IMG/VR virus record: IMGVR_UViG_642791630_000009
Origin: a virus
Lineage: Duplodnaviria; Heunggongvirae; Uroviricota; Caudoviricetes
Strand: one strand, 5' to 3'
DNA length: 49,569 nucleotides
The position numbers were made by a program. Shown here piece by piece: positions 6,001-9,000 of this stretch. Position 1 is the stretch's first letter; each line of letters opens with the position of its first letter.

Positions 6001-9000
6001 GAAGTATTGCCCGGCGTTCTGTGGGGCGGGGTGGGTGGTTGGTGTATGTAATCTACAATAAAAAACTGTTTTTGTGTCAACAGTTTTTAATTGTTGTTTT
6101 GGGCAAAAAAATCCCTCGAAAGAGGGAGTATGAAAATTGTTCAACTCAGATAGAGAAGGGAAATTGTCGCCGAGAATGTGTCACGCTTACAATCTCAATG
6201 CTTGAAGCAGCTACTCTGTACAGGATTATGTAGTTAGGGTGGGTCACGATCTCTCTCAATCCAGAAACCCGTTCGCTTGGTGGATATAAGTACGGATGCT
6301 CAGATAGAGGTAATACCGATGTTTCAATGCGTATTTTTAGTCTACGTGCTGCCGGTGGGTTCTCCTTGGCGATGTAAGTTATGATCTGGCGCAAATCATC
6401 GCGAGCAGACGGTAGCCATAAAATGGGTAACATTACTCGCTCTTGTTAGTTACAGCAATTTGAGCAATAAGATTTTCCATTTCAGCCATTACCTCGTCAT
6501 GTGGAATTGCGGGGCGAGTGTCTGCAAGGCTTGACGTTACTTTAGTGCGCAACCATTCGTTGTAACTGTTTTCTTGTTCGGTAGTTTCGAATTCTGAAAC
6601 TATCGGAGAAAGGGCTGTACCCATGGCATAACTCCTCTTCTTGTACTGTGGTCACGCCCGGCGGCTTTTTTGTGCCGCCAGCCACCTAGCAATGGTTTCT
6701 TCCATTGATTTTTTCTTGTCTTTGATTTCTTGAAGCATTTTTTCTTGGTCTTCCTCAGGAAACGCACTAAAAGCTTGGAGCAGTTCGCGTTGGCGAGGAC
6801 CAATTTTCATCGTGTCAGGGGTGAAAATTTGCTCACACTCTTCAGGAGGCAATAAAAACCAATGCAATGGATGCCCTGAAACCTCAACCAGTTTATCCAA
6901 ACTTGAGGCTTTAGGTGTAGCCTTACCGCTGACCCATTGTTGAACAGTTTGTTGTGTCACACCAATTCTACGGGCAAGCTCAGCCTGGCTCCATCCAGTT
7001 TCCTGAAGAAGCTTGCTGATTCTGTACATAGATACTTCTAGGGCGCTCATCATTATTCAATTTTACAGGTAAATACTGTTAAAAGCATCACAATAAAAAA
7101 CTGTTGATTGCATACAGTTTTTTATTGTAGGCTTTGCTTATAGTTTTTAGAGGAGGGCAAAATGCTAGATAGCACTCGCGAAAAAATTAGGCAGAAATAC
7201 ACTCAGGCTGAAATAGGTCGTTATATGGGGGTCGCTCAACAGACTGTTTGGCAATGGTTTAGCTTTGGCGTTCCCCCAAAGCAGGTAATTCCGTTATGCC
7301 AACTAATGAAGTGGGAAGTTACCCCGCATGAAATCCGCCCAGATATTTATCCTAACCCAACCGACGGTTTACCTGTTGGATGTAAGGTTAACACATCAAA
7401 TGCGCCGGAGTTGATTCATGAAAATCAAGCATGAACACATCCGCATGGCGATGAATGCCTGGGCGCATCCGGACGGCGAAAAAGTACCGGCTGCGAAAAT
7501 TACCAAAGCGTATTTCGAGCTGGGAATGACGTTCCCGGAACTGTATGACGACAGCCATCCGGAAGCCATGGCTCGCAATACTCAGAAAATTTTCCGCTGG
7601 GTGGAGAAAGACACTCCTGATGCGGTTAAAAAAATTCAGGCGTTGTTACCAGCGATCGAAAAAGCGATGCCGCCTCCGCTGGTGGCCCGAATGCGCAGCC
7701 ACAGTTCCGCTTATTTTCGGGAGTTGGTAGAGACGAAGGAACGGCTGGTGAAAGATATTGATGATTTCGTTGCATCAGCGATCGTTCTGTTCGATCAGAT
7801 GAATCGTGGTGGCCCGGCAGGAAACACTCTGGCTGTGCATTAATTGGGTAATAAATATGAGTAATGACAAAAAATTGACACTGAGCGTTTACGAAAACAG
7901 TCCGCACATCTGGCGTGGCGGTTTATCTGATGTGGAGCTGGCAGAGTGGTTGATACATAAAGCTAATGCGCTGCTCTGGCGTTTGTCAGCCAGAGAACAG
8001 CGCAAGGAAACCAGAATAAAGCTGGCTGATGCAGAAGCGTGTGCCGGGCTTATTGAGGATTATACAAATCTTGGTATTTCTTCAGCAGAGAGTGATCCCA
8101 TTCAGCCTCTGAGCAGGGAGTCAATCCAGCACGCTGGTTGTATGGCACATCTTGTAACTGCTCGTCAACATGAGGTGGGTATTGGATCACTTCCGGCGGG
8201 ATATTCGCTGATTCCAGAGCTGGTTGAAGCAAGAAAATCAGTTCAGAAAAAGAGAGATGACGCACTTCAATTATTGAGAGAGCACTATGGCGCGATACCA
8301 GAATGCGAACAGCGTCGATACCCTGAAGGTTATGAATGGATGCAGTCTCTTTTTGAAGTTCGCTAATCAATATGTCGAGACGAAGGTATGTTTCGGCGCG
8401 CAGCCAGGCTCTGTAATCCGGGAGCATTTCGGGGCTGTTACACCAGCGGTTTGTTGCTGCAACATTTAATACATGAGCCTGATAAAGGCTTTTCAAAAAA
8501 TACATGTCGAACCTCCTCTGGTTCTGTCGATTGGGAACCACAGATTATATCCGGAGGAAGGTTCGGCACCAGATGAGGTAGCCATGCGTGATTACGCAAA
8601 AGTTTCTCCGCGATTCTGGCTGGGAGAAACGGGGAGAGAACTTAGAAAGGCGGGTGCAGAAGCGCAAGTTGTTGCTTTTTACCTGATGACATCCCCTCAC
8701 GCAAATATGCTGGGTTTGTATTACCTGCCAGTTTTATACCTTGCTCATGAAACCGGGCTTGGTCTGGAAGGGGCTTCAAAGGGGCTTAAAAGGGCTGTTG
8801 AAGCTGGTTTTTGTAGCTATGACCATGATGCAGAGATGGTCTGGGTCCATGAAATGGCAGCCTGGCAGGTTGGGGAAACGTTGAAGCCTGGCGATAACCG
8901 TTGTGCAGGTGTCAGGAATGAGTATGCATCATTACCTGAAAACGCTTTTCTGTCAGTGTTTTACGACAGATATAAAACGGATTTCCATCTGGATGTGAGG

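Follow-up and report, generated by a model that had tools for sequence, protein, structure and literature searches.

Probable lambda-style operators flank the paaR-paaA-parE operon in the immunity region of the cryptic Escherichia coli O157:H7 prophage CP-933M

Why should a toxin-antitoxin operon be bracketed by two near-identical palindromes? The question is raised by a 49,569-nucleotide stretch of viral DNA (IMG/VR record IMGVR_UViG_642791630_000009; this whole stretch is hereafter called the window), for which a preliminary description had placed a repressor, an antitoxin and a toxin gene inside the immunity region, between twin operators, and had proposed that the toxin-antitoxin (TA) pair is wired into the lysogeny switch, in the slot that lambda uses for rexAB. 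Our analysis makes it very probable that the region is the immunity region of the Escherichia coli O157:H7 prophage CP-933M with its known paaR-paaA-parE operon, and that the palindromes are lambda-style left and right operators (OL and OR).

Positions 5900-7500 of the window are 100% identical over 1601 bp to E. coli O157:H7 EDL933 (NZ_CP008957.1, 1254541-1256141), and the same 1601 bp recur at 100% identity in about 500 other complete genomes, mostly of O157:H7. According to the EDL933 annotation, the whole window is a defective lambdoid prophage adjoining yccA, in which int, an exonuclease gene, dicB, ydfB and ydfA precede the immunity region on the left, replication genes, Q and then the lysis, head and tail genes follow it on the right, and an ISEc8 insertion and several pseudogenes are also found. 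This prophage is CP-933M, and it is cryptic because its terminase, capsid and tape-measure genes are damaged: the small terminase gene is cut short by an inserted ISEc8, an IS66-family element, the gene for the major capsid protein is also truncated, and that for the tape measure carries a frameshift (window 26167-28771, 34387-34650, 36241-38819). Jurenas et al. 2021 (PMC8630535), citing Hallez et al. 2010, located a homologue of paaR2-paaA2-parE2 in CP-933M, and the 2010 study, as summarized in PMC4803016, found two paralogous systems in O157:H7 whose antitoxins show no cross-neutralization. Of the paaR-paaA-parE systems of O157:H7, the locus studied here is the second (Hallez et al. 2010), the CP-933M copy, and as such it is already known. 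We label it paaR1-paaA1-parE1 by elimination, the "1" names being assigned neither in PMC8630535 nor in the account given by PMC4803016.

The existence of a three-gene module in the immunity region, comprising a repressor, a PaaA2-like antitoxin and a ParE toxin, was borne out by matches to Pfam and the Protein Data Bank (PDB) as well as by the 100% identity to CP-933M of EDL933. The antitoxin matches PDB entry 3zbe (PaaA2, E 1e-20) and has PaaA2 (PF21217) as the sole domain found, with no DNA-binding domain; the toxin matches 5cw7_B (ParE2, E 3e-36) and is 100% identical to EDL933 WP_001303876.1. In the repressor, an N-terminal helix-turn-helix (HTH) domain resembling that of the 434 repressor is joined to a C-terminal domain common to PaaR2 and DicA, and its earlier designation as DicA-like was fair, given 28% identity to K-12 DicA over 111 amino acids (aa; E 1e-11) and the same architecture. 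HTH families were the sole Pfam matches of the repressor, with no match to Peptidase_S24, the self-cleavage domain of the RecA-cleavable LexA/CI type. The region would behave as a CI switch, yet its repressor lies outside the CI/LexA family.

The three genes are closely packed. The antitoxin stop overlaps the parE start (TAATG), the 27-bp gap between the repressor and antitoxin genes contains a GAGGAG ribosome-binding site, and a consensus scan of the operon found no minus-strand promoter-like or terminator-like site within it. Downstream of parE stands an intrinsic terminator (6127-6112) with a 6-bp stem, of which 4 pairs are G-C, and a T-run (-9.6 kcal/mol, z -3.7). This arrangement is consistent with the cotranscription of repressor, antitoxin and toxin that had been proposed; for the paralogue paaR2-paaA2-parE2, cotranscription has been shown by experiment, as PMC8630535 reports from Hallez et al. 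2010.

The palindromes on the two sides of this operon have a finer structure than their overall symmetry. The right one (7090-7104 and 7114-7128) has 15-nt arms that are 100% complementary around a 9-nt spacer, and the left one (6055-6069 and 6080-6094) has 15-nt arms with one mismatch around a 10-nt spacer, or an 8-nt spacer if the arms are taken as 16 nt. Near-identical palindromes with 15-bp arms are indeed present on both flanks, as the preliminary description had it, but its 9-bp spacer holds for the right palindrome and not for the left. The 15-mer ACAATAAAAAACTGT occurs in four copies at 0-1 mismatch in the window, all within the two palindromes, and a fifth match with 3 mismatches lies at 22666; these 5 matches at ≤3 mismatches compare with 1.4 expected, and no shuffle reached 5. 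Each 15-nt arm is in turn pseudo-symmetric, with ACA and TGT as its two ends and A/T-rich sequence in the middle, and the strict motif ACA[AG][TG]N5[AC][CT]TGT has 5 matches in the 49.6-kb window against 0.65 expected, all of them at OR or OL.

Through the scan for ACA-N9-TGT we picked up a further site, OR3 (7065-7079), which was absent from the preliminary description. The 108-bp intergenic region between the repressor gene and ydaS holds three such sites (at 7065, 7090 and 7114), which are overlapped by a predicted rightward promoter (PR) and a predicted promoter for repressor maintenance (PRM). The three sites of OR are centred 24-25 bp apart; at OL two sites, not three, were detected. Each palindrome thus appears best read as two adjacent 15-bp operator sub-sites of the form ACA-N9-TGT, with the third site completing OR, so that of the "twin operators" the operator-like repeats on both sides remain, while the count of one operator per palindrome gives way to two sub-sites on each side plus a third at OR. 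The palindromes also mirror one another, 6053-6069 being 100% complementary to 7114-7130 and 6077-6094 being 94% complementary to 7090-7107, which fits two promoters firing in opposite directions. Bracketing operators and a slot equivalent to that of rexAB both agree with the description of CP-933P by Jurenas et al. 2021 and with our comparison of seven related immunity regions. The coordinates of all features are collected in Table 1.

Table 1. Features of the CP-933M immunity region, with positions in the window
Feature	Position	Strand	Description
OL1	6055-6069	.	ACAATAAAAAACTGT; left arm of left palindrome; reverse complement identical to OR1
OL2	6080-6094	.	ACAGTTTTTAATTGT; one mismatch to consensus arm; overlaps predicted PL -35
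Predicted PL	6050-6080	-	-35 TTGACA (6080 to 6075), 19-bp spacer, -10 TAGATT (6055 to 6050); toward ydfA, ydfB, dicB
Intrinsic terminator of operon	6112-6127	-	TCCCTC-TTTC-GAGGGA then T7; directly after parE, before OL2
ParE-family toxin gene	6146-6433	-	95 aa; Pfam ParE_toxin PF05016, E 3e-17
PaaA-family antitoxin gene	6433-6624	-	63 aa; Pfam PaaA2 PF21217, E 6e-19
PaaR-type CI-like repressor gene	6652-7053	-	133 aa; Pfam HTH_3, E 2e-12; weak Phage_CI_repr
Predicted PRM	7054-7065	-	-10 TAAAAT (7065 to 7060, starts on last base of OR3), 6 nt, ATG at 7053
OR3	7065-7079	.	ACAGGTAAATACTGT; weaker third site, 25 bp from next; abuts predicted PRM -10
OR2	7090-7104	.	ACAATAAAAAACTGT; left arm of right palindrome; overlaps predicted PR -35
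OR1	7114-7128	.	ACAGTTTTTTATTGT; right arm of right palindrome; between predicted PR -35 and -10
Predicted PR	7104-7133	+	-35 TTGATT (7104-7109), 18-bp spacer, -10 TAGGCT (7128-7133); toward ydaS, ydaT
YdaS-family Cro analogue	7162-7434	+	90 aa; Pfam YdaS_toxin PF15943, E 8e-10
Predicted YdaT site	7411-7428	.	TTGATTCATGAAAATCAA; perfect match to 5'-TTGATT-N6-AATCAA-3'; junction of ydaS stop and ydaT start
YdaT-family CII analogue	7418-7843	+	141 aa; Pfam YdaT_toxin PF06254; 86% identical to CP-933P YdaT

Relatives of the locus were gathered by a protein search with the repressor followed by retrieval of the encoding contigs. Repressors with the same recognition helix, (T/A)QQTVQQW, were obtained from five other genera: Salmonella (80% identical), Klebsiella (68%), Pluralibacter, Morganella and Arsenophonus (48%). 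Counted from the repressor ATG, Salmonella, Klebsiella and Pluralibacter all have ACA-N9-TGT sites at precisely -75, -51 and -26; the -26 site, which is OR3, is thus present in these three and in E. coli. Morganella has the -75 and -51 sites with a degenerate third (...ATCGGT), and Arsenophonus has two sites 49 bp apart. A second pair of sites, 23-25 bp apart, is found downstream of the repressor operon in all five genera, and stem-plus-T-run elements resembling the CP-933M terminator also precede OL2 in the Salmonella locus and in locus L018. When the OR sites are aligned, the ACA and TGT triplets are invariant and the site centres variable, which is the pattern to be expected of protein-contacted half-sites and not that of a conserved hairpin.

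Among the phage matches listed, none covers more than 15% of positions 5900-7500, and both single-piece matches consist of the first 140 bases (5900-6039); in three of the two-piece matches, annotated CI/cI repressor and Cro/DicC genes sit between the matched ends. OL therefore travels with the repressor, within an exchangeable immunity cassette.

Promoter-like hexamers keep their place relative to the sites. For the leftward promoter (PL), TTGAC(N) and TA(N)3T hold a constant position relative to the two sites in seven loci, and for PR, TTGA(C/T)N and TA(N)3T stand at constant positions in five genera; in the window, the -35 of PR begins on the final base of OR2 and its -10 on the final base of OR1. 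At the repressor start, TA(A/G)AAT-N6-ATGATG is invariant across five genera. This start has no Shine-Dalgarno sequence, and with the PRM -10 only six nucleotides from the ATG, a leaderless repressor mRNA is predicted; leaderless mRNAs have been shown for paaR2 and lambda cI (PMC8630535). We infer PR, PL and PRM from positions conserved across genera and not from a consensus score. A CAACC(A/C)AC-like motif was also observed beyond the predicted PL -10, some 15-25 nt downstream (window ~6028-6042, minus strand ...ACACCAACCACCCACC); it recurs in loci L003 (Salmonella), L006 (Klebsiella), L013 (Pluralibacter), L014, L002 and L018 (CGAC in L018) and in the Qin locus of K-12 (L020, ~2940-2955), despite differing operators, and may belong to the leader of the early-left transcript.

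The position occupied by the TA pair, between the repressor gene and OL, is filled differently from one relative to the next. In place of PaaA and ParE, the Salmonella locus has one protein of 112-120 aa of unknown function (L003, 3553-3915), Klebsiella has unknown proteins of 84 and 170 aa plus a reverse DUF2767 gene (L006, 3484-4247) and Pluralibacter has one unknown protein of 152 aa (L013, 3550-4008), and the slot is empty in Morganella, Arsenophonus and Qin dicA. A PADLOC search gave no match for the Salmonella, Klebsiella and Pluralibacter cargo, for whose called genes no Pfam family was recorded and whose PHROGs were all of unknown function; these proteins are candidates for exclusion or addiction functions expressed in the lysogen. 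ParE2-like TA pairs, for their part, are also found behind heteroimmune repressors in loci L009 and L016. Because the content of the slot varies among relatives, we regard the TA pair as exchangeable cargo of a slot that behaves like the rexAB slot of lambda, on the maintenance promoter. In the heteroimmune metagenomic locus L016 (1853-3506; also L017, 845-2498), PaaA-ParE, a Zn-ribbon protein and a YoeB/YefM pair of opposite orientation come after the repressor gene, which thus has two TA systems directly downstream of it; L016 yielded no OL-like sites.

As to what the pair does for CP-933M, the preliminary description had suggested that it could stabilize the prophage or exclude superinfecting phages. 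By analogy with the CP-933P paralogue, from which the experimental support comes, it may act in addiction and prophage stabilization. PADLOC gave no match for the antitoxin or the toxin and matched the repressor to generic HTH components only, and a role of the pair in phage exclusion is speculation.

How might the repressor and YdaS read these sites? Phage 434 offers a precedent: its operators are 14 bp long (ACAA-N6-TTGT, with half-site ACAAG), and Gln17, Gln28, Gln29 and Gln33 of its repressor read the ACAA half-site. The best PDB match of the CP-933M repressor HTH is the 434 repressor (E 3e-5), with the recognition helices aligned, and all four glutamines are conserved in the alignment (SQAEL...TQQTVQQW). 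The recognition helix of YdaS, AQQTVWQW, is close to that of the repressor, TQQTVQQW. As in 434, repressor and Cro analogue share a QQ...Q helix and the operators begin with ACA(A/G) and end with (T/C)TGT, and in the Klebsiella locus the half-site, ACAAG, equals that of 434; unlike in 434, the C-terminal domain of the CP-933M repressor is short and unrelated, and identity is low outside the HTH. By this analogy, PaaR1 and YdaS plausibly read the same ACA(A/G) half-sites, as the 434 repressor and 434 Cro do, and the PaaR1-type repressor together with its Cro could represent an undescribed version of the 434 recognition code that occurs naturally with 15-bp sites (QQxxxQ reading ACA). A residue-to-base code relating the Gln33-equivalent residue (Q, R or K) to operator position 4 was sought in the heteroimmune relatives L009, L016 and L018: L016 (Arg, with ACAC sites) fits, and L018 and L009 do not fit cleanly.

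The junction of ydaS and ydaT provides a further component of the switch. The published YdaT operator is 5'-TTGATT-N6-AATCAA-3' (PMC9986795), and the element at 7411-7428 is its sole 0-mismatch match in the window; it probably marks the analogue of PRE, the promoter from which expression of the repressor and the TA pair would be established.

The closest characterized system is the CP-933P locus, which we took from strain Xuzhou21 for comparison. Alignment to its paaR2-paaA2-parE2 genes supported the relationship drawn earlier, with 67% identity for ParE, 70% over 56 aa for PaaA, 42% for PaaR and 86% for YdaT. The similarity of PaaR is confined to residues 37-133 (the C-terminal 98 aa; E 1e-19), with the N-terminal DNA-binding domains unalignable, and YdaS of CP-933M is unrelated to YdaS of CP-933P. 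CP-933P (Sp12) has the same three genes in the same order and orientation, with ydaS and ydaT divergent from them, replication genes on the right and dicB-type genes on the left; in both prophages, which the same strain holds, operators flank the operon on both sides and the repressor start is apparently leaderless. Where CP-933P has four 18-bp palindromes built on GTTTAGTAA half-sites, CP-933M has 15-bp ACA-N9-TGT sites, and GTTTAGTAA is absent from the CP-933M locus. Judged from their sequences, the two loci are heteroimmune paralogues, which have the TA cargo, the repressor C-terminal domain and the CII analogue in common and differ in HTH, Cro and operators.

For CP-933P, Jurenas et al. 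[quoted passage not shown] They placed PL and OL on the far side of the TA operon, so that the TA pair occupies the position of lambda rexAB, and found that the locus is bistable along with the switch, that the operon is under PRM and PRE control and that the TA pair is addictive. The O157:H7 toxins are toxic, are neutralized by the cognate antitoxin only and cause post-segregational killing, according to the summary of Hallez et al. 2010 in PMC4803016. A literature search on CP-933M or Sp4 operators returned CP-933P papers only, and a literature search for the operator sequences themselves gave no match.

Comparison with lambda shows how far the organization extends. In both, repressor and cro genes diverge around a three-part OR, and the repressor operon, which includes accessory genes expressed in the lysogen and closes with a terminator, has a second operator set on its far side. 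In both, a CII-type activator site stands at the junction of cro and cII; the terminator after parE mirrors that after rexB. Adjacent sites are spaced 23-25 bp centre to centre, and the OR sites of lambda are spaced 24 and 23 bp. The CP-933M proteins, however, resemble none of CI, Cro, CII and Rex in sequence, the repressor has no S24 domain, the cargo is a type II TA pair and not RexAB, and two OL sites were detected. In Qin of K-12, DicA is 28% identical to the repressor, including a C-terminal ELLxxFxxLPExxQ region, and the left-arm genes ydfA, ydfB and dicB are alike; by contrast, no cargo lies between dicA and the OL-like repeats, and the operator sequences and Cro type (DicC) differ. Matching inverted repeats of the form TGTTAG..N..CTAAC are found in Qin both between dicC and dicA (L020, 2352-2434) and between dicA and ydfA (2843-3008), where TTGACC lies between the two repeats downstream of dicA. 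As judged from these repeats, Qin appears to follow the same OR/OL logic with another specificity and no cargo.

For the CP-933M locus, we infer the promoter assignments, the occupancy of the sites and the biological role as follows. PaaR1 would be made, along with antitoxin and toxin, from a weak and probably leaderless PRM, on a transcript ending just past parE. Its dimers would bind the 15-bp ACA-N9-TGT sites, three at OR between paaR and ydaS and two at OL beyond the terminator; once filled, OR1 and OR2 together with OL1 and OL2 would cover PR and PL from -35 to -10, shutting off the lytic-type genes, and OR3, beside the PRM -10, would allow negative autoregulation. YdaS, with its near-identical recognition helix, would compete for the PaaR1 sites, and YdaT would bind the inverted repeat at 7411-7428, supplying establishment transcription. 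Between repressor and OL, the TA pair would be lysogen-expressed cargo, the antitoxin neutralizing ParE for as long as the operon is on; loss of the operon would leave the stable toxin behind, penalizing deletion of the immunity region or of the prophage.

Other explanations of the palindromes have to be weighed against lambda-style operators. Each 39-40-bp palindrome could be a single long operator for a repressor tetramer or octamer, with the two 15-bp stretches as its arms. The arms are perfect or near-perfect reverse complements in the window, PaaR2 is reported to octamerize (PMC8630535) and PaaR1 shares its C-terminal domain, and cooperative binding across both arms is likely in any case. 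We nevertheless find one long operator unlikely: each arm is pseudo-palindromic by itself, with invariant ACA/TGT ends; OR3, an isolated single 15-mer, recurs at 25-bp spacing in four genera; and the arms of the Klebsiella OR match as reverse complements at just 10 of 15 positions, with the ACA/TGT ends kept. The recurrence of OR3 and the divergence of the Klebsiella arms imply that the conserved unit is the 15-mer and not the long palindrome. The same comparison bears on a hairpin model for the left palindrome (6055-6094), in which RNA or DNA would fold at the 3' end of the TA operon and serve as a terminator or as an mRNA-stabilizing stem-loop. As RNA, this palindrome folds into a 15-bp A-U-rich hairpin (-14.2 kcal/mol, z -4.4) and it lies downstream of parE, yet any palindrome folds in this way, no T-run follows it and transcripts should end before reaching it, at the G-C stem and T7 of the terminator upstream. 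Furthermore, the same sequence stands at OR between divergent genes, where termination would be senseless, arm complementarity is lost in other genera while the ACA/TGT ends are kept, and the spacer holds a perfect TTGACA -35, whose TTGAC with a variable sixth base is conserved in seven loci. We rejected this hairpin, the least probable of the explanations.

It could also be argued that the TA pair inserted independently as a selfish element, is regulated on its own and is uncoupled from the lysogeny switch. The slot holds unrelated cargo or none in relatives, the ParE2-like pairs behind the heteroimmune repressors of L009 and L016 point to a mobile cargo cassette, and the PaaA2-ParE2 complex is partially autoregulatory (Hallez et al. 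2010, as summarized in PMC4803016). Uncoupling is nonetheless very improbable, because the gap before the antitoxin gene holds a ribosome-binding site only, with no minus-strand promoter-like site and no terminator between paaR and paaA, and because the paralogue has its three genes in a single operon, controlled by PRM/PRE and bistable with the switch (PMC8630535). The full region is moreover present in 509 of the 510 E. coli genomes that carry the CP-933M repressor, a co-occurrence for which the clonal O157 lineage largely accounts.

We therefore retain the reading of the region as a CP-933M immunity region with lambda-style OL and OR, against which the following points weigh. CP-933M is defective, so its switch may be partly decayed. 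A simple consensus promoter scan called neither PR nor PL, nor any other promoter at OR or OL: the -10 hexamers of PR and PL are weak (TAGGCT and TAGATT) and the spacers long (18 and 19 bp), and the weak -10 and 19-bp spacer explain why PL went uncalled. The sites are 15 bp and not 14 bp, and the likeness to 434 is one of mechanism only, not of immunity-group membership; where relatives have Arg or Lys in the place equivalent to Gln33, their sites are changed, with no simple readable code. The PaaA2-ParE2 complex is also reported to contribute to repression (Hallez et al. 2010, per PMC4803016), and the searchable literature yielded neither EMSA or footprint results nor mapped transcription start sites for CP-933M.

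Elsewhere in the window, the lysis cassette (holin, lysozyme and Rz-like genes, 22835-25065) is annotated on the minus strand, inverted with respect to the Q antiterminator gene (15405-15776), and remnants of insertion sequences and transposases lie near it at 20874-21850; the orientation of the cassette suggests that an inversion has occurred within the late region of CP-933M, itself defective. Other cargo annotated by RefSeq comprises the type I toxin gene hokD, a tRNA-Ile/Arg/Arg cluster downstream of Q, sodC and a frameshifted tccP2 effector gene (13379-13534, 18109-18358, 41366-41893 and 47941-48974).

In summary, by coupling this TA pair to a lysogeny switch, the preliminary description correctly rediscovered what had been published for the sister locus, for which the rexAB analogy is already in print, whereas the operator grammar predicted for this immunity type may not have been published. 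For the CP-933M copy, our analysis adds five predicted 15-bp sites, three predicted promoters of which one would be leaderless, a predicted terminator and a predicted YdaT site. In its widest form, the proposal would be that the slot is a general landing site for lysogen-expressed cargo, that its unknown proteins represent new exclusion, defence or addiction functions, that PaaA-ParE mediates Rex-like abortive infection and that the repressor and Cro embody a variant of the 434 code; we consider this combination possible but doubtful, and if it were true, PaaA-ParE would act as a Rex-like abortive-infection module, beyond addiction alone. The differing or empty slots in other genera support the TA pair as exchangeable cargo on the maintenance promoter, and the uncharacterized genes found there are candidates to be screened for exclusion or addiction phenotypes.

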